From Candidatus Woesearchaeota archaeon (GTDB lineage: Archaea; Nanobdellota; Nanobdellia; Woesearchaeales; JAFGLG01), in assembly GCA_016928155.1 (NCBI GenBank), contig JAFGLG010000017.1, positions 4,134-68,133 on the forward strand: a stretch of DNA of 64,000 nt, in the 5' to 3' direction. A program made the position numbers and the translations under genes. The notes under the pieces were generated by a model, which was not told the origin of the DNA, searched no databases, and saw only the letters and a list, made by a program, of their open reading frames with translations. Positions 5,360 through 28,662 of the stretch are shown in pieces (the first letter of the stretch is position 1; every line of letters starts with the position of its first letter).

Positions 5360-5941
5360 ATGAAAGATATTATAACAGAAGAGTTTGCCCTGAAGCTTCT
5401 TAAGAGATATTCAAAGTCTGGTACAAAAGGATCTTACAGGATTGTCTCATCTGATGCAAAGAGACTGAGCAAGCTTGCCGTCGCTTATGCGAAGAAAGCA
5501 GTCAAGAATGGTCATGATATTGACATTGGATTTGTGGCATCAGCTTCACTTCTGCATGATATTGGAAGATTTAGATATCCCCCATTTGCCAAGGACAATA
5601 TCAGGCATGGCATCGAAGGTGCAAGGATCCTCAAGAAAGAAGGGCTTTCAAGGAGATACCAGGATGTCTGCCTGAATCATATTGGTGCTGGTTTACGGAG
5701 GTCTGATATTATCAGGCAGAATCTCCCCCTCCCGAAGAAGGATTTCATGCCGAAGACCAAGGAGGAGATCATCATTTCCTATGCAGACTTGAGATTTCAT
5801 GAGGGTAGAGTTGTGGGTATTGTTAGGGAATCCAGGAGATATGAGTCATTCCAGAAAGGCCTCGGGAAGCGTGTTCTTCAGTTCCACAACCGTGTCATGA
5901 AGCTCATCGGAGCGGATAATAAGGTAAGGAATATAAGATAA
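5360..5941 (+). CDS. HD-superfamily metal-dependent phosphohydrolase (HDIG/YqeK-like)
   Basis: HD signature SLLHDIGRF, plus downstream His residues (HGIEGA, LNHIGAGL) and ISYADLRF. Length is 193 aa. The start is 17 nt downstream of the GGDEF gene. Confidence 0.65.
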   Translation: MKDIITEEFALKLLKRYSKSGTKGSYRIVSSDAKRLSKLAVAYAKKAVKNGHDIDIGFVASASLLHDIGRFRYPPFAKDNIRHGIEGARILKKEGLSRRYQDVCLNHIGAGLRRSDIIRQNLPLPKKDFMPKTKEEIIISYADLRFHEGRVVGIVRESRRYESFQKGLGKRVLQFHNRVMKLIGADNKVRNIR

Positions 5942-6076
5942 TAAGGTAAAAGATATAAACAAGTTCTGATTCTGATGCCCTGTCGATGATGAGGTTATCC
6001 CCGGCTGATCGCATGATGAATTCGAAACGCTCTGAGACAATATATTCAGGATCTGCTTGCTGAGCATCTGCACAAA

Positions 6077-6415
6077 ATGAGACTTATCAAGACAAAGGAT
6101 GGTTACAGGATCCCAAGCTCTTCCCAGAAGAACCAGTTCTATGAAGTTGATCCTAAGAAGAAGAGCTGTACTTGTGCCCAATATCTCTTCCGCGCAAGAA
6201 AAGTGGGAGGCACCTGCAAGCATATCGATGCAGTCCTTGAGCATCTCGGCAGTATGAAGAAGAATGAGAAAGAGGAACTTCTGGAAGTTGTAAAAAAACT
6301 GGGACCGATTGACTTTGTCAAGCTCGCGGAATCTTACAGCGAAGACCTCATCAATCAATTGATAGACAGCGGTGACCTGATTGAGGAAAAAGGCAGGATC
6401 AGGTTATTAAAATAG
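6077..6415 (+). CDS. SWIM zinc-finger protein
   Basis: CxCx(n)CxH pattern: SCTCAQYLFRARKVGGTCKHI. Confidence 0.5.
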   Translation: MRLIKTKDGYRIPSSSQKNQFYEVDPKKKSCTCAQYLFRARKVGGTCKHIDAVLEHLGSMKKNEKEELLEVVKKLGPIDFVKLAESYSEDLINQLIDSGDLIEEKGRIRLLK

Positions 6416-6455
6416 CACCATAACATATTTAAAGCTTCACCTGCTTCTCAAAATC

Positions 6456-8984
6456 ATGATCCCTGACAAGCAGATCAAGGCAGATTTCAGGAAAACAGCA
6501 TGGGATGACCCTGATAAGTACTATGCGACTTCAGTCCTGAAAGAAGAAGGCTTCATCAGGAAGATCTGCACAAAGTGCTCCAAGCCTTTCTGGGCAATAA
6601 AGGACAGCAAGGTATGCGGTGATCCGGCATGCTCTGGTGGATTCAGGTTCTTTGAGGGTTCTCCTGCCAAGAACAGGATGGATTATATCGAAGCTTGGCA
6701 GAGGTTTGCAGAGCTCTTCCGCAAATTTGGATACACACCGATTAAGCGTTATCCTGTTGTCGCCAGGTGGCGTGATGATACTGATTTCGTGCAGGCATCC
6801 ATCTATGACTTCCAGCCTTATGTGGTGAATGGGACAATAGATCCGCCAGCTAACCCGTTGGTAGTCCCGCAGTTCTGCTTGAGGTTCAATGATATTGATA
6901 ATGTCGGCATCACAGGCGCGCATTACACTGGCTTTGTGATGATCGGCCAGCATGCCTTCATGCCTCCCGAGAATTGGAATCAGGACCAGTATTTCCGCGA
7001 TATCCACACCTGGCTTAAGGAAGGATTAGGCCTCCCGAACGAGGAGATAATCTTCCATGAGGATGCTTGGGCAGGCGGCGGAAACTTCGGCCCTTGCATG
7101 GAATTTTTCTCGAGAGGTTTAGAGCTTGGCAATCAGGTCTATATGATGTACCAGCAGACTCCTGGAGGCAACAAGGAGCTGAATCTTAAGGTGCTGGATA
7201 TGGGTATGGGCCATGAGCGAAACGCTTGGTTCACCAAAGCAACAAGCACAAGCTATGAGACAACATTTCCCACAGTCACAAAATTCCTGCATAAGGAGAC
7301 TGGAATCAAGATTGATGATAGTATCATGAAGAAATTCCTGCCATATGCCTCTTACCTCAATGTTGATGAAGTGGAGAACATCGACAAGGCTTGGGATGAA
7401 GTTTCAAAAAAGACATGTATAAGCAAGAGCAGTCTGAAGCAGAGCATCATCCCTCTTTCTCAATTATACAGTGTTGCAGAGCATTCACGCTCGTTGTTAT
7501 TCGCAATCTCCGACGGAGCTCTTCCCAGCAATGTGGGTGGAGGATATAATCTCAGGGTCATATTGAGGCGTGCATTGCAGTTCATCGAAAAGAACCGCTG
7601 GAACATCAGGCTTCCTGAGCTTTGCAGGCTGCATGCCTCTTATCTCAGGCCAATATTTCCGGAACTCAGTGAGAACCTTGATGATGTCGAGCAGATCCTT
7701 GATGTCGAAGAGAAGAAATTCTATCAGACTCTTGAGAAATCAAGGAGGATTGTCAAGGGGATATTTGAGAGAGAGCAGGATATTGATACAAAGAAGCTGA
7801 TCGAGCTTTATGATAGTCATGGCATAACCCCTGACCTGATAAGCGATGAGGCTGAATCCCATGGTAAGGATATTGAGGTCCCTGATCGTTTTTATGCACT
7901 GGTTGCAGAACAGCATGAGCAGACATCCCAGGCTAAAGAGAAGGAGAAGGTCTATGATCTGCATGGTGTGCCGGATACAAAGGCATTATACTTTGATGAT
8001 TTCAAGATATGCGAGCTGACAAGCAGGGTCATCAAGGTCATCGACAATATTGTCATCCTGGATCAGACCATTTTCTATCCAACTTCTGGCGGCCAGGATC
8101 ATGATATCGGCACCATGGATGATATCAAGGTCATTGACGTAAAGAAGCAGGGCCCGCACATTTTGCATTTCCTCGAGAATCCTTCATTCAAGGAAGGCGA
8201 TAAGATTCATTCAAAGATTGATTTCTCCAGAAGATTGCAGCTCACCCAGCATCATTCTGCTACTCATCTGATAAATGGCGCTGCAAGGAAGATTCTTGGG
8301 AGCCATATCTGGCAGGCAGGTGCTGAGAAGCGTCTTGATAAGGCAAGACTTGACATAACGCATTATGAGCAGATATCAAAAGAGGATTTGCAGAAGATTG
8401 AGGAACTTGCTAATGAGATGATAGCGGCTAATAAGCCTGTCTACAAATCTTTCATGAAGAGGAACTTGGCTGAATCAAAGTATGGCTTCAGGCTTTATCA
8501 GGGTGGTGCTGTTCCTGGCAAGGAGATCCGTGTTGTTGATTATTCTAATTTTGACATTGAAGCATGCGGCGGCACCCATGTGGATCTCACTGGTGAGATT
8601 CAGCAGATAAAGATCCTGAGATCCACTAAGATCCAGGATGGCATTGTGAGGATTGAGTTCACTGCAGGTGATGCTGCTCTTGATACATTGAGCGAATCCA
8701 AGGCATTGGTCGAGCAGCTGACTGGAATCCTTGGTGTTGACGAGGATCTTCTGGCTTCACATGGCCAGGAGCTTTTTGAGAAGTGGAAGCGTGCCAAGAA
8801 GATAATCAAGAAAGGAAGTCCTGATCCTGAGTTCAATCCAGAGCTTGTCTCACAAGAGAAGATTGAAGGCGACCCTGTGCAGAATCTGAGCGGGATCTAC
8901 AAGACCCAGCCAGAGCATATTGTCAAGACTATCGAGCGCTTCAGGAAAGAATTGGCAGATATGGCTGATAAGCTGCCGAAATAA
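6456..8984 (+). CDS. alaS: alanyl-tRNA synthetase (archaeal type)
   Basis: 842 aa. Editing-domain zinc motifs HHSATHL and CGGTHV are present. The overall architecture fits archaeal AlaRS. Confidence 0.9.
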   Translation: MIPDKQIKADFRKTAWDDPDKYYATSVLKEEGFIRKICTKCSKPFWAIKDSKVCGDPACSGGFRFFEGSPAKNRMDYIEAWQRFAELFRKFGYTPIKRYPVVARWRDDTDFVQASIYDFQPYVVNGTIDPPANPLVVPQFCLRFNDIDNVGITGAHYTGFVMIGQHAFMPPENWNQDQYFRDIHTWLKEGLGLPNEEIIFHEDAWAGGGNFGPCMEFFSRGLELGNQVYMMYQQTPGGNKELNLKVLDMGMGHERNAWFTKATSTSYETTFPTVTKFLHKETGIKIDDSIMKKFLPYASYLNVDEVENIDKAWDEVSKKTCISKSSLKQSIIPLSQLYSVAEHSRSLLFAISDGALPSNVGGGYNLRVILRRALQFIEKNRWNIRLPELCRLHASYLRPIFPELSENLDDVEQILDVEEKKFYQTLEKSRRIVKGIFEREQDIDTKKLIELYDSHGITPDLISDEAESHGKDIEVPDRFYALVAEQHEQTSQAKEKEKVYDLHGVPDTKALYFDDFKICELTSRVIKVIDNIVILDQTIFYPTSGGQDHDIGTMDDIKVIDVKKQGPHILHFLENPSFKEGDKIHSKIDFSRRLQLTQHHSATHLINGAARKILGSHIWQAGAEKRLDKARLDITHYEQISKEDLQKIEELANEMIAANKPVYKSFMKRNLAESKYGFRLYQGGAVPGKEIRVVDYSNFDIEACGGTHVDLTGEIQQIKILRSTKIQDGIVRIEFTAGDAALDTLSESKALVEQLTGILGVDEDLLASHGQELFEKWKRAKKIIKKGSPDPEFNPELVSQEKIEGDPVQNLSGIYKTQPEHIVKTIERFRKELADMADKLPK

Positions 8985-24905: not shown

Positions 24906-25373
24906 CTATTTCTTCTTCACTTTGATGACGTCGCCGAGCGTGAATCCCTCTCCTGACTCAGATGCTTTTGCTGTTCCCCTGACTTCCTCGTGCTGGTCGA
25001 TGATCTTCACTCCCAGATATTTCTCGAACTTCCTGGCAAGTTCCATGCCTGGCTTGAAATGCCCTGACTCGACTTTATGTATCAGGCTTTCTCTCTCTGC
25101 CATCACCTTTGCCAGCTCTTCCTGCTTGAGTCCTCGTTTCTCTCTTCCCTTCTTGACTATCTCTGCATATTCTGGGATTATGTATTGGACGATTTCTTTG
25201 TTTGGAGCAGGAGTCGCCCTTTGTTTTGCGATGCTTGGGGGTAGTCTCTCAGCTCTTCTCGGCTGTTCTATCACCTTGCCATACCTTGCACAGGCATCGC
25301 ATACGCTTAGCATTGTCCCTTCTATCTCTGCCTTGACAAGTTCTGTATCATTCCCGCACATGTCGCATTGCAT
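24906..25373 (-). CDS. archaeal multiprotein-bridging-factor-1-like protein (zinc ribbon + XRE HTH)
   Basis: MQCDMCG...CDAC zinc ribbon. C-terminal helix-turn-helix GLKQEELAKVMAERESLIHKVESG. Confidence 0.65.
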   Translation of the reverse strand: MQCDMCGNDTELVKAEIEGTMLSVCDACARYGKVIEQPRRAERLPPSIAKQRATPAPNKEIVQYIIPEYAEIVKKGREKRGLKQEELAKVMAERESLIHKVESGHFKPGMELARKFEKYLGVKIIDQHEEVRGTAKASESGEGFTLGDVIKVKKK

Positions 25374-25499
25374 GATTTCACCCTTGTATGATTTTTGTGA
25401 TTCAGCTTAGAAATCTCCGGTTTTATCTTCAATCATCTCATCAATCCCCAGAATACCAGTATCAGCCACCTTTATAAATATTACCCCAATGATTTAGGT

Positions 25500-25913
25500 T
25501 TATGGCAAGTCCAGCTTATTTTCAATAGCTGCACTCAATGTCTTGATGTACAATAATGCCTGCACTTGGATGCCTTTCCAGTCTTTTTCATATATGGGAT
25601 TGCCGTAGTAATGGATGCCATTTCTCTTTGTCCTGAATCTTTCGAAGAAGCTCCAGTCAAGGTCAAGTTCTGGATGCTTGACACAGAGATATGCAAAGAG
25701 GCATTGGTGATTGATGGATCTGACTTTTTCAAATAGGAGATAAGTTGCTGCGAGGGTGCGCAATATATCATAGTAAAGCTTTAATCCTGTATTCCAGTTC
25801 TTGCTGAATATTGCCTGTTCAGCAACTTCTGTATCTCCTTTAGTGATTTCTATGTTTGTCATGATCTTGCCGAAGTCAACCTGTTCCAGATAGACTAAGT
25901 ACCTGTCTGACAT
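25500..25913 (-). CDS. HEPN-domain protein, partner of the adjacent nucleotidyltransferase
   Basis: Rx4-6H motif RTKRNGIHYYG. The start is placed at an internal Met so the gene begins 8 nt after the upstream stop. The track ORF extends to 25997. Confidence 0.45.
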   Translation of the reverse strand: MSDRYLVYLEQVDFGKIMTNIEITKGDTEVAEQAIFSKNWNTGLKLYYDILRTLAATYLLFEKVRSINHQCLFAYLCVKHPELDLDWSFFERFRTKRNGIHYYGNPIYEKDWKGIQVQALLYIKTLSAAIENKLDLP

Positions 25914-25920
25914 GCATCTT

Positions 25921-26487
25921 TTATGCACCTCTTCTTTGCTTCTGAAGTTCGACATATGCTGAGACCTCTTGAGGTATTGTACCTTTGACAACAACACCCC
26001 TCAGTACATTGTAGATCACACTACGTCTGAACTTTTTTAATTCTTCCTTGTTTTTTACGGAGAATATCTGGATTTCTCGACGGAGTTTCGATTCATATTG
26101 TTGGAGGTTGATTTCGCCATCTCCATAGATGAAGATATCAATATCACTTCCGAAATACCAATCGCTCCTGGCAAAACTTCCAAACAGGATTGCGCATTCC
26201 ACATCTGCAAGATCATCAAGGATTCCGCAACTGCACAACTGATTCATTGCATATATCCTCTTCCTCAGTTTGTAGTTTCCATCCTCATGATTGCTGACAT
26301 AGTAAGGCATCTTGCCTTTTTCTTTTGTGCGCGTGATGATCTTCTCTTCCTGGAATCTCTTGAGCCATTTTGCTAGTTTGCTTTCTGCAATCCTGATTTC
26401 CTTGTTCAGTTCGCAGAAATGCCAGTGCTTTGCTGGGTTTTCAAAGAATAATCTCAATACATCCTCTTCCTTGCTATGCCTTCCCAT
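25921..26487 (-). CDS. minimal nucleotidyltransferase (MNT) with N-terminal winged helix
   Basis: ILFGSFARSDWYFGSDIDIFIY matches the GSx(n)SDxD nucleotidyltransferase signature. Confidence 0.6.
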   Translation of the reverse strand: MGRHSKEEDVLRLFFENPAKHWHFCELNKEIRIAESKLAKWLKRFQEEKIITRTKEKGKMPYYVSNHEDGNYKLRKRIYAMNQLCSCGILDDLADVECAILFGSFARSDWYFGSDIDIFIYGDGEINLQQYESKLRREIQIFSVKNKEELKKFRRSVIYNVLRGVVVKGTIPQEVSAYVELQKQRRGA

Positions 26488-26600
26488 ATTACTACCCTTA
26501 AAGGGAAGTATTATTTAAATCTTACCAATAGTTTATATGATAATTTATATAAAAGAGAAGCGATTAGATGATGTATCACACTCAAAGGGGGTGCCATAAC

Positions 26601-26975
26601 ATGGCCAAAAAAGAGGTCGAGATAAAAGCAAAAGGTGATAATTCATTCGCATTCTTATCAATCGTTGCCATAATAGCAATAGTCGCATTAGTGGTTCTGG
26701 TGACAGGAGTAGGAAAGAGACAGGCAATGCCCACCTATGTCACAACAGGGGTTGAAGGTGGAGATTTGGTTGGGCAGCCGATTGCTGAAGTGGGAGAAGA
26801 ACAAGCACCAAATAGACCACTAACAAAAGTTGATCCGCATACTGATACTGGATGTGAAGTGGTTGATAACTGGTGGCCGATTCCTGATACATGTAAAGCA
26901 AGACAAGGGAGTAATTGTCAGACTTGTTATTTTGATTCAGGCGGGAACTGCAAATGTAAAGAATTCCCTGGTTAA
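26601..26975 (+). CDS. small Cys-rich membrane-anchored or secreted protein
   Basis: Transmembrane segment FAFLSIVAIIAIVALVVLV. C-terminal CEVVDNWW...CKARQGSNCQTCYFDSGGNCKCKE. The start is ambiguous between 26568 and 26601. Confidence 0.3.
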   Translation: MAKKEVEIKAKGDNSFAFLSIVAIIAIVALVVLVTGVGKRQAMPTYVTTGVEGGDLVGQPIAEVGEEQAPNRPLTKVDPHTDTGCEVVDNWWPIPDTCKARQGSNCQTCYFDSGGNCKCKEFPG

Positions 26976-27035
26976 ACTAGTATTTTCTCATTTTTACTTT
27001 GATTTTCATCTTTATGTATTATCATGATAGCCAGA

Positions 27036-27075
27036 ATCCCAGAATAAGCCAGATATCTTAGTGATCTCTTCATGG
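27036..27075. repeat. left direct repeat flanking the Bro-N cassette
   Basis: atcccagaataagccagatatcttagtgatctcttcatgg. Confidence 0.6.
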
Positions 27076-27181
27076 TGGGGGGTAGGTTGGCAGGTTTTTA
27101 AAGGTTGCTTTATCTTTTTTCCGGAAATCCACTGGTCATTTCGGAGTGAAATATATAAACCATTAAATTATTAGTAAGTTT

Positions 27182-28021
27182 ATGGATAAAGATAATGCTT
27201 TGGTTGTTTTCCAGGACAGGAGAATCCGTAGGATTTGGCATCAGGACCAGTGGTTTTTCTCAGTCATTGATGTCGTTCAGGCTTTGACTGACAGCTCTAA
27301 TCCAAGGAATTACTGGAGTATGCTTAAGAAAAGGGAATCTGAATATGAAATTGACTTGTCCACATTTTGTGTACAACTGAAGCTGCTCTCTGCAGATGGC
27401 AAGTATTATAAGACAGATTGCGCAAATGTAAAAGCGCTTTTTAGGATTATACAATCAATTCCCTCAAAAAAAGCTGAGCCTTTCAAGCTGTGGCTCGCAC
27501 AAGTGGGATATGAACGAATTCAGGAGATAGAGGATCCAGAGCTTGCTCAAGAGCGTATGAAAGAGCTTTATGAGCAGAAAGGTTACTCGAAGGCATGGAT
27601 AGAAAAACGCCTTAGGGGAATTGCTGTTAGGCAGGATCTGACTGATGAATGGAAAAAACGTGGAGTTGATAGCCAAATCGGTTTCTCAATATTGACAGCA
27701 GAGATATCCAAAGCAACTTTTGGCATGACCCCATCTGAATATAGACTATTCAAGAATTTGAAAAATGAGAACCTGAGGGATCACATGACCGACTTGGAAC
27801 TGATCCTCAATATGTTGGGAGAAGCATCGACAGCTGAACTAGAACGGGTTCATGATCCAAATACTTTTTCTGAGCATAAACAGGTTTCTAGAGATGGAGG
27901 AAAAGTTGCAGGAAAGGCAAGGCAAGAATTAGAGAACAAGACTAAGAAACAAGTTATTAGCGAGGAAAATTATCTTGACGAGCCTGAAAAAGTAAAAAGG
28001 AAGAAACTCCCGAAAGAGTAA
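27182..28021 (+). CDS. Bro-N/KilA-N domain protein with RhuM/antirepressor-like C-terminal region
   Basis: N-terminus VVFQDRRIRRIWHQDQWFFSVIDVVQAL is Bro-N-like. The downstream segment LTDEWKKRGV...NLRDHMTDLELILN is conserved. Confidence 0.5.
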   Translation: MDKDNALVVFQDRRIRRIWHQDQWFFSVIDVVQALTDSSNPRNYWSMLKKRESEYEIDLSTFCVQLKLLSADGKYYKTDCANVKALFRIIQSIPSKKAEPFKLWLAQVGYERIQEIEDPELAQERMKELYEQKGYSKAWIEKRLRGIAVRQDLTDEWKKRGVDSQIGFSILTAEISKATFGMTPSEYRLFKNLKNENLRDHMTDLELILNMLGEASTAELERVHDPNTFSEHKQVSRDGGKVAGKARQELENKTKKQVISEENYLDEPEKVKRKKLPKE

Positions 28022-28057
28022 GTTAAAATTTATTATATCCCTATCCCGGCTGCCAAT

Positions 28058-28097
28058 ATCCCAGAATAAGCCAGATATCTTAGCGATTTCTTCATGT
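28058..28097. repeat. right direct repeat flanking the Bro-N cassette
   Basis: atcccagaataagccagatatcttagcgatttcttcatgtt. Matches the left copy at about 36 of 40 positions. Confidence 0.6.
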
Positions 28098-28145
28098 TTT
28101 GTGGGATTATTATATCTTAATAAAGTTTTCAGAAAAAAAAAATGA

Positions 28146-28301
28146 AGCGCGGAGAGGGACTTTCGGCGCCTTGGCGTTGAAAGTAAGCCACGCCAGTGGC
28201 TGCACTCGAACCCCCGAATGATCGCTGTCTGTTTTATATCATCGCCGAAGCTCAATACAGCAATCTGCAGGCGATTGCCTTAGCCGCTTGGCTACCCGCG
28301 C
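28146..28301 (-). tRNA. tRNA-Cys(GCA) with three predicted introns (anticodon, variable region, T-loop)
   Basis: On the minus strand the acceptor stem is GCGCGGG/TCCGCGC with discriminator U73. D-loop residues A14, G18, G19 and A21 are present. Anticodon stem is ATCGC/GCGAT with loop CTGCAGA (G37), split by 18 nt. T-stem is GGGGG/CCCTC with loop TTCGAGT, split by 45 nt. A further 25 nt sit between the anticodon and T arms. Confidence 0.45.
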
Positions 28302-28394
28302 TTGATGCGGCTAATCCTGTGTGAATTCTTGACCTTTATAAATATTATCTACTGAATCGCCTGATTCTGCGCCCCTTTCACTCTATAACCATTG

Positions 28395-28470: not shown

Positions 28471-28524
28471 TAAGAACACTGCAAGGCAAAGGATTAAGAG
28501 AACAAGTACAGAACCAAAAAAAAA

Positions 28525-28662
28525 CGCGCCTAGAGGGACTTTCAGGGCACTGAAAGTTCGCAACTTCAGTTGCCGCATTTGAACCCTCGATCTACAGCTC
28601 TCTTTGCTTCTATATCCAAAGCATAGAAGGCTGTCGCCCTATCCAGGCTAGGCTATAGGCGC
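28525..28662 (-). tRNA. tRNA-Arg(UCU) with two predicted introns (anticodon, T-loop)
   Basis: On the minus strand the acceptor stem is GCGCCTA/TAGGCGC with discriminator G. Anticodon stem is ACAGC/GCTGT with loop CTTCTA(A), split by a 24-nt intron. That intron contains TATAGAAG, which can pair with the anticodon loop. T-stem is GAGGG/CCCTC with loop TTCAAAT, split by 39 nt ending in GAAAGT. Confidence 0.5.

Follow-up and report, generated by a model that had tools for sequence, protein, structure and literature searches.

A 64,000-nucleotide stretch of contig JAFGLG010000017.1 from the metagenome-assembled genome of a Candidatus Woesearchaeota archaeon (hereafter the window) was analysed around a gene for a Bro-N protein, which lies between two imperfect direct repeats of 45 nt and beside two tRNA genes. 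The most economical reading is that a Bro-N module was inserted here, with duplication of 45 bp of the target. We consider this reading plausible and unproven, and give it a probability of roughly 0.45. The locus is an archaeal member of an already known candidate-defence family, PDC-S13, in a small variable region adjacent to tRNA genes; the details that it adds are a conserved promoter motif and flanking duplications that are recurrent and heterogeneous. An earlier note on this DNA had described the cassette, and most of its observations were borne out, the exceptions being the labels RhuM, KilA-N and viral; its interpretation is plausible and unproven. Feature coordinates are collected in Table 1.

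The two repeat copies, whose starts are 1022 nt apart as the earlier note had stated, are equal at 41 of 45 positions (91%), and their longest common exact run is 26 nt. When the 39-nt core (27036-27074 and 28058-28096) was searched for in the window with up to 3 mismatches allowed, these 2 matches were obtained, against none in 100 shuffled sequences (0.00 expected). Permissive blastn and tblastn detected no further copy in the 64 kb, and no third copy was found among 170 fetched loci of homologues (numbered below with the prefix L). Both copies together with the gene were present in an independent Logan assembly of SRR13394437 (L001). Because two copies were found with none in the shuffles, and because a separate Logan contig agrees, the repeat is real and an artefact is unlikely. 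A repeat that arose by chance, by neutral local duplication, as a gene-conversion patch or as an assembly artefact, unconnected to the arrival of the gene, is very improbable. Short dispersed repeats do flank approximately 3% of unrelated neighbouring open reading frames (ORFs), but a 45-nt match of 91% was never reached in shuffles, the two assemblies agree, a 26-nt exact run is too short for a k-mer assembler to create a false duplication, and the repeats stand at both ends of a single compositionally distinct, horizontally mobile gene.

Codon-degenerate pattern scans for the repeat gave 0 matches in the GTDB species genomes and 0 in the JGI metagenomes, neither of which includes the source genome. 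With no third copy in the window, which covers 64 kb of a 143.6-kb contig, or in the 170 loci, a widespread genome repeat was rejected as far as these data reach. The folding energy of the repeat was no better than that of shuffled sequences on either strand (z from +1.85 to -0.39) and dyad symmetry was lacking; the repeat is therefore not attC-like. Terminal inverted repeats of the inserted segment were not found, the best end-to-end inverted match being 6 nt (p 0.31), and they were also not found in seven other repeat-flanked loci. A weak third copy was seen at 25447-25491, at the left border of a low-GC stretch, with 28 of 45 matches (p approximately 0.025), a value bordering on chance. Overlapping this copy is one site (25468-25483) of an exact 16-nt repeat, ACCTTTATAAATATTA; the other site, at 28332-28347, is the TATA region upstream of tRNA-Cys.

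As the earlier note had it, a single gene with a Bro-N domain is enclosed, this being the only long ORF between the copies. Its product matched Pfam Bro-N (PF02498) at residues 15-107 with 41.8 bits, against a gathering cut-off of 25.6. Full-length matches were obtained with the PADLOC profile PDC-S13 (E 3.2e-122, 405 bits, residues 1-274 on profile positions 1-276 of 286) and with phrog_15286 of PHROGs (E 3e-103). The C-terminal half is weakly DinD-like, with residues 123-252 collinear to NCBIfam PRK11525 (E 2.6e-4, 20.4 bits against an equivalog cut-off of 242). The RhuM-like C-terminus and the KilA-N label given earlier were not upheld: Pfam Virulence_RhuM showed no match at E ≤ 10 on residues 107-279, nor at E ≤ 0.01 on the whole protein, and KilA-N was absent among the Pfam matches. 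No sequence relative of the protein was found in the PDB. In the AlphaFold model, the N-terminal 110 residues (Bro-N) had pLDDT values of approximately 80-86, and the helical C-terminal half was poor (pLDDT 42-70; pTM 0.40). The best Foldseek match for the C-terminal fold, Deinococcus DdrC (E 7e-3, TM 0.33-0.40), was too weak to use and was set aside. The protein would bind DNA through Bro-N, would probably regulate itself and may possibly have anti-phage activity.

The family is large and has a patchy distribution across both domains. More than 8000 homologues were found, the best being 67-80% identical to the window protein, which is thus as conserved as the TopoVI-A protein of the host is with respect to its nearest relatives (81%). 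GTDB species genomes and JGI metagenomes each yielded more than 500 confirmed loci, with identities of 57-79% for the best 80 from each. Archaeal homologues occur in Woese-, Micr-, Nano- and Pacearchaeota, Methanoperedens, Methanocorpusculum and Altiarchaeales, and bacterial ones in Bacteroidales, Lentisphaerae, Verrucomicrobia, Legionella, Geobacter and bacteria of the candidate phyla radiation (CPR). Gene contexts vary between genomes; the two closest homologues (L002 and L004) are in unrelated contexts, and no flanking repeats were found around either. Cas1 (n = 7), type III restriction ResIII (n = 4), phage integrase (n = 4), N6 methylase and type I specificity subunits were the most frequent recognisable families among 150 immediate neighbours, with Cas1 in first place. 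At several related loci, a restriction-modification (RM) methylase precedes the gene, or restriction genes or genes of clustered regularly interspaced short palindromic repeats (CRISPR) surround it, as in the embedded cases L004/L008, L046/L073 and L088.

The domain had been described in the earlier note as typical of viruses, a description that did not hold for this family: only 3 weak loci were found in IMG/VR, and a homologue turned up in just 4 of the 50,697 GenBank phage records and in 24 of the 72,556 plasmid records. A viral or plasmid vehicle for the gene was rejected on account of this rarity. Given the distribution across domains, the varied contexts, the nature of the neighbours and the rarity in viruses and plasmids, the Bro-N gene is promiscuous, mainly chromosomal and defence-associated, and not typically viral. 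These comparisons support the view that it behaves as a self-contained, horizontally moving single-gene module. Separately, in loci L076, L082, L137-L158 and L163, from Bacteroidales and the human gut, the gene lies approximately 1.5-2.6 kb from CRISPR arrays with 47-nt repeats.

Alignment of upstream regions showed that the archaeal homologues carry the motif CACTGGNCA, with a TATA box 11-13 nt later, usually 52-73 nt before the ATG. The motif was present upstream of 20 of 163 homologue loci, against 0.5 expected, and occurred at chance frequency elsewhere in 2.2 Mb of locus sequence (both strands). Carriers include L011, L012, L013, L014, L018, L021, L027, L088, L090, L153 and L161; in L018, L153 and L161 it is tandemly doubled. 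In the window, the corresponding elements are CACTGGTCA at 27130-27138, GAGTGA at 27144-27149 and the TATA-like ATATATAAA at 27151-27159, with the motif starting 52 nt before the ATG. At several loci the motif begins a few bases from the stop codon of the upstream gene. Since the motif and TATA box precede the homologues and can abut the upstream stop codon, the archaeal moving unit consists essentially of motif, TATA box and ORF. The CACTGGNCA motif is a candidate operator, possibly for the Bro-N protein itself.

Each repeat copy had been noted to encode, on the minus strand, the start of a short peptide, MK(R/K)SLRYLAYSGIL, and the same start was read from two small ORFs. The peptide of ORF A is MKRSLRYLAYSGILAIMIIHKDENQSKNEKILV and that of ORF B is MKKSLRYLAYSGILAAGIGI, which ends at two consecutive stops; their first 15 residues are common. 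On the minus strand, each copy consists of 1 nt followed by codons 1-15 of the small ORF, minus the last base of codon 15. On one side, the similarity breaks off sharply a single base upstream of the ATG; on the other, it fades gradually over a few codons past codon 15. Of the five codon differences between the copies, 4 are synonymous (P 0.02), and no other frame is open or shows this bias. Unrelated TATA-like strings lie approximately 25 nt upstream of each ATG as read from the sequence; that of ORF A, TTTAAAAA, is within the 55-nt spacer between repeat 1 and the promoter motif, approximately 26 nt before its ATG.

If the repeats are the scar of an insertion, a module of approximately 1 kb with a single gene, comprising its own promoter with the CACTGGNCA motif and a PDC-S13/DinD-like Bro-N ORF, would have been acquired horizontally. 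The landing site would be a small, defence-flavoured part of the Woesearchaeota chromosome with low GC, where the module would have an ORFan gene on one side and tRNA-Cys on the other. The 45 bp of duplicated target would span positions -1 to +44 of a short ORF, leaderless and encoded on the opposite strand. Of the two duplicates, one would have kept the original promoter beside the tRNA and would now be a 20-codon stub, and the other would still be joined to the 33-codon body. What the earlier note had called a gene whose 5′ end was duplicated by the insertion is an unconserved ORF of 33 codons.

As the cassette has neither a recombinase nor terminal inverted repeats, joining was probably carried out by the host or by functions acting in trans, through illegitimate recombination, homology-facilitated recombination or Campbell-type additive integration of a donor fragment. 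An insertion sequence (IS)-type transposase and a classical integrase element are ruled out by the variable repeat lengths, the lack of inverted termini and the lack of a recombinase. In a host-mediated integration, one repeat copy could derive from the donor; this would account for the synonymous differences and for the 55 nt of unmatched DNA before the conserved promoter. Both the origin of the repeat at insertion and the mode of joining are inferences.

Flanking repeats were surveyed by comparing the 500 nt upstream with the 500 nt downstream of the gene in the 147 loci with enough flank. Scores of at least 25 were obtained in 12 of them, compared with 15 or less in mismatched-locus nulls; these were the window, L038, L085, L009, L071, L051, L077/L086, L088, L110, L139 and L142. 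L169 has a 21-nt exact flanking repeat. Each locus has repeats of its own, with lengths of 21-212 nt and identities of 79-98%, and these are often built from the end of a neighbour. Thus, the repeat in L088 is formed by the final 23 codons of the RM methylase upstream, of which an orphan fragment is present as the downstream copy; in L077/L086 by a C-terminal fragment of the type IX secretion system (T9SS); and in L051 and L142 by helicase motifs. L077 and L086 are in one genome, where the unit including both repeats is 94% identical and the flanks 80-82%, with repeat variants that are each locus's own. In Micrarchaeota locus L009 (2237-6312), two units are adjacent: a 422-aa gene is bounded by an 84-nt repeat, and the Bro-N gene by a repeat of 43-66 nt in three copies, the third of which is the 3′ end of a 182-aa minus-strand gene. 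In L078, a segment of approximately 1 kb, located at approximately +1500 relative to the Bro-N gene, is flanked by a near-perfect direct repeat of 113 nt that encodes a Hint/intein-like segment (EIEGTHNFIANDI).

Several results weigh against an insertion with target duplication. In a gene-aligned control, flanking repeats were found for 13 of 394 neighbouring ORFs (3.3%) and for 8 of 139 Bro-N genes (5.8%; Fisher p 0.21). The strong enrichment suggested early on against mismatched loci and shifted windows was mostly gone in this control, and the claim that flanking repeats are specific to the gene family was dropped. The origins of the repeats are also mixed. That of L038 is a terminator hairpin. 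In L110, the Bro-N gene lies between two paralogous genes for small secreted proteins (312-590 and 1499-1840, 92 and 113 aa) that are approximately 90% identical over 212 nt, so that some flanking repeats are whole duplicated genes. Woesearchaeota locus L013 (3851-5587) has the Bro-N gene 64 nt after tRNA-Leu(CAA); the tRNA 3′ end with its trailer, TCTCCGCACTTATTT, recurs past the Bro-N gene and again inside a 76-nt repeat past the next gene (171 aa), which makes the locus an array of repeat-bounded single-gene units with an intergenic module containing the tRNA 3′ end. In the metagenomic loci L139 (1880-3045) and L164 (approximately 5500-6700), a common repeat family of approximately 100-140 nt (AAAATCAGRGAC..TTTTTCTRAGT...) bounds single genes, including Bro-N; it may be an integron-like or other cassette array.

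At the window itself, no homologue of ORF A was found anywhere searched, including the GTDB species genomes and JGI metagenomes. A staggered cut exactly one base before the start codon would be a coincidence, and 4 synonymous differences out of five are unexpected if one copy is a dead stub. The uninterrupted site, which the earlier note had proposed to look for in related genomes, was sought by the codon-degenerate repeat scans and by TopoVI-A synteny; no empty site, no excision product and no close relative was found. The nearest TopoVI-A relatives (81% identical) have in common with the window only KH-TopoVIB-TopoVIA and lose synteny right after TopoVI-A, and with the ORFan having no homologue the synteny approach was a dead end.

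Part of this evidence is what would be expected if selection on the peptide had kept the repeats as conserved 5′ ends of a pair of small paralogous genes, which would be leaderless, have a promoter each and encode hydrophobic peptides of 20-33 residues, with the Bro-N gene in between. The start of similarity a single base ahead of each ATG and its fading after codon 15, differences that are mostly synonymous in that open frame alone, the unrelated TATA-like boxes before each ATG and the complete paralogues around the L110 homologue all fit such genes. We nevertheless regard them as rather unlikely. No third copy of the peptide was found in the 64 kb or in 1.1 Mb of related loci, the codon-degenerate scans of GTDB species genomes and JGI metagenomes were empty, copy B has just 20 codons, the P value is based on five substitutions, and TATA-like strings are common in AT-rich spacers. 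As neighbouring ORFs show repeats too and the origins are mixed, repeat-flanking is not a signature of the Bro-N gene and not the result of one mechanism; repeat-flanked single genes recur in these variable regions.

The position next to tRNA genes was evaluated in the same loci. ARAGORN detected 8 tRNAs in 1.04 Mb of homologue loci, and 4 of these were within 150 nt of the Bro-N ORF, against 0.24-0.48 expected. The four loci, L013/L095, L083 and L090, represent 3 lineages, and the window is a fifth case. These numbers support tRNA flanks as preferred landing sites. In the window, tRNA-Cys lies 49 nt past repeat 2, in agreement with the earlier note, which had also called this a classic integration neighbourhood. 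The repeat, however, lies clear of the tRNA and there is no integrase or transposase in the vicinity, so the integration neighbourhood is circumstantial only. The repeat and tRNA-Cys share no sequence, and no second copy of the tRNA-Cys 3′ end was found other than the related tRNA-Arg. No tyrosine or serine recombinase domain was detected in the ORFs scanned around 14.7-39.2 kb.

These data also bear on whether the repeats are attL/attR-like sites of a recombinase encoded elsewhere, the Bro-N gene being a miniature non-autonomous integron- or island-like cassette at a tRNA-adjacent hotspot. The recurrent tRNA adjacency agrees with this, as do the array of single-gene units built from the tRNA-Leu end and TCTCCGCACTTATTT in L013, the two adjacent repeat-bounded units in L009, the integrases among immediate neighbours (4 of 150) and the weak third copy at the left edge of the low-GC stretch. 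We consider it improbable all the same, since the window repeat is outside the tRNA and the tRNA 3′ end has no copy elsewhere, no integrase is encoded by the neighbouring ORFs scanned, the repeat lacks dyad symmetry and a stable fold, and its sequence and length vary by locus. A broader proposal, which we hold to be quite improbable, is that PDC-S13/DinD-like Bro-N genes would be a cross-domain single-gene mobile cassette that brings along a promoter and the CACTGGNCA motif. Its preferred sites of capture would be gene ends and the 3′ flanks of tRNAs, and the target duplications made there would vary from 15 to 350 bp. Either the Bro-N protein itself could promote capture, or an unrecognised recombinase could do so and build arrays of repeat-bounded single-gene units in DPANN genomes (L009, L013 and possibly 25447-28096 of the window).

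The cassette is part of a stretch at approximately 25250-28250 with a GC content of 38-41%, compared with 44-53% in the flanks. Besides the Bro-N gene, this stretch holds a nucleotidyltransferase gene with an overlapping small partner and a 124-aa ORFan. The nucleotidyltransferase (25921-26487) matched Pfam Polbeta and was PDC-M05A-like in PADLOC (E 3e-16); its partner of 151-165 aa had no family match. The two resemble a pair of the MNT/HEPN type. A comparable, non-orthologous nucleotidyltransferase pair is present in L013, 1.5 kb from the Bro-N gene; orthology of the two pairs was rejected, as they match at superfamily level alone. The ORFan, left neighbour of repeat 1, has an N-terminal hydrophobic segment and a Cys-rich C-terminus, and no homologue besides its own record was found among 5.8 billion proteins.

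Both tRNA genes were missed by ARAGORN and Rfam on the raw sequence. After removal of two introns from each, ARAGORN called tRNA-Cys(GCA) of 73 nt and tRNA-Arg(TCT) of 75 nt, with canonical cloverleaf and anticodon; because such clean calls follow the removal, the label "intron-rich" in the earlier note is correct. The introns of tRNA-Cys are 38 nt long at position 37/38 and approximately 45 nt long in the T-loop, and the gene is followed by a T-run at 28136-28145. The 3′ parts of the two genes, including the end of the second intron, are alike (28130-28169 and 28509-28548, 78%). Beyond the tRNAs are a gene for a 510-aa membrane protein and then the conserved TopoVI-A, TopoVI-B and KH genes.

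Table 1. Features of the Bro-N locus, in window coordinates
Feature	Coordinates	Strand	Basis
Direct repeat copy 1, 45 nt	27030..27074	n/a	Repeat search and sequence comparison
Direct repeat copy 2, 45 nt	28052..28096	n/a	Repeat search and sequence comparison
Bro-N protein gene, 279 aa; PDC-S13 and phrog_15286 member	27182..28021	+	ORF list, profile searches
Conserved promoter region of the cassette	27130..27159	+	Upstream alignment, motif counts
Putative small ORF A, 33 codons, unconserved	26972..27073	-	ORF list, homology searches
Small ORF B, 20 codons then double stop	28033..28095	-	Sequence reading
Spacer of 55 nt from repeat 1 to the conserved promoter motif; no counterpart in other loci	27075..27129	n/a	Sequence reading
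Overlapping pair of nucleotidyltransferase and partner genes	25500..26487	-	ORF list, Pfam, PADLOC
ORFan of 124 aa, left neighbour of repeat 1	26601..26975	+	ORF list, homology search
tRNA-Cys(GCA), two introns	28146..28301	-	ARAGORN after intron removal
tRNA-Arg(TCT), two introns at the same two positions	28525..28662	-	ARAGORN after intron removal

If the repeats are a scar, the locus would be a compact example of a tiny DPANN genome gaining a candidate anti-virus gene that is common, almost unchanged, to Archaea and Bacteria, by an insertion beside tRNA genes without an element-encoded recombinase. The recurrent long, locus-specific duplications raise the question of how single defence genes embed without destroying their neighbours, and the CACTGGNCA-TATA module offers a concrete candidate regulatory site for an uncharacterised defence candidate. 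Current ideas are not overturned; an archaeal instance and some anatomy are added.

Among the nearest known systems is PDC-S13 itself. PDC candidates are predictions without a phage assay, based on genetic embedding (Payne et al., bioRxiv 10.1101/2024.01.29.577857). For PDC-S13, the basis is embedding in an RM, BREX or DISARM system, with non-embedded homologues also counted. The window protein matches the profile over its full length, and related loci lie near RM methylase, restriction and CRISPR genes as embedded candidates do, but the window gene is outside any RM, BREX or DISARM system, its neighbours being the ORFan, the nucleotidyltransferase pair and the tRNAs. In the literature searched, no paper was found that links Bro-N or DinD to target duplications or that names PDC-S13 in its text. 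Escherichia coli DinD (PRK11525) is similar in having an N-terminal Bro-N domain and a helical C-terminal half, and several homologues are named DinD by JGI; however, with 20.4 bits against the cut-off of 242, the window protein is not a DinD orthologue. E. coli DinD is under SOS regulation and inhibits RecA filaments, properties that are not transferable to the window protein. Viral and prophage BRO antirepressors share the Bro-N domain, which scores above the Pfam cut-off here, whereas the window subfamily is overwhelmingly chromosomal and has no KilA-N or RhuM match.

Regarding mobile elements, tRNA-adjacent islands and archaeal integrative elements have att repeats of approximately 40-60 bp generated by tyrosine recombinases. 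The window likewise has direct repeats of att length around foreign-looking DNA by a tRNA gene, but its repeat is 49 nt outside the tRNA, it has no integrase and the unit is of one gene. It differs from IS elements, transposons and miniature inverted-repeat transposable elements in that the Bro-N gene is the sole ORF, terminal inverted repeats are lacking and the flanking repeats, at 21-212 nt, are not of fixed length. Integron cassettes are comparable as promoter-proximal single ORFs within similar repeats, with the arrays of L009 and L013 and the repeat family of L139/L164 in mind; the window repeat, however, is 45 nt long, unstructured and in two copies, an IntI-like gene was not seen, and the cassette is equipped with a promoter of its own. 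Campbell-type integration and homology-facilitated illegitimate recombination leave locus-specific duplications of host sequence that are of variable length and whose copies may differ from the start. Such recombination is a general process rather than a defined family of elements, and a donor molecule is not evident at the window locus, but the repeats of the Bro-N family, 21-212 nt long and 79-98% identical, and the orphan 3′ end of the methylase gene in L088 are of the same kind.

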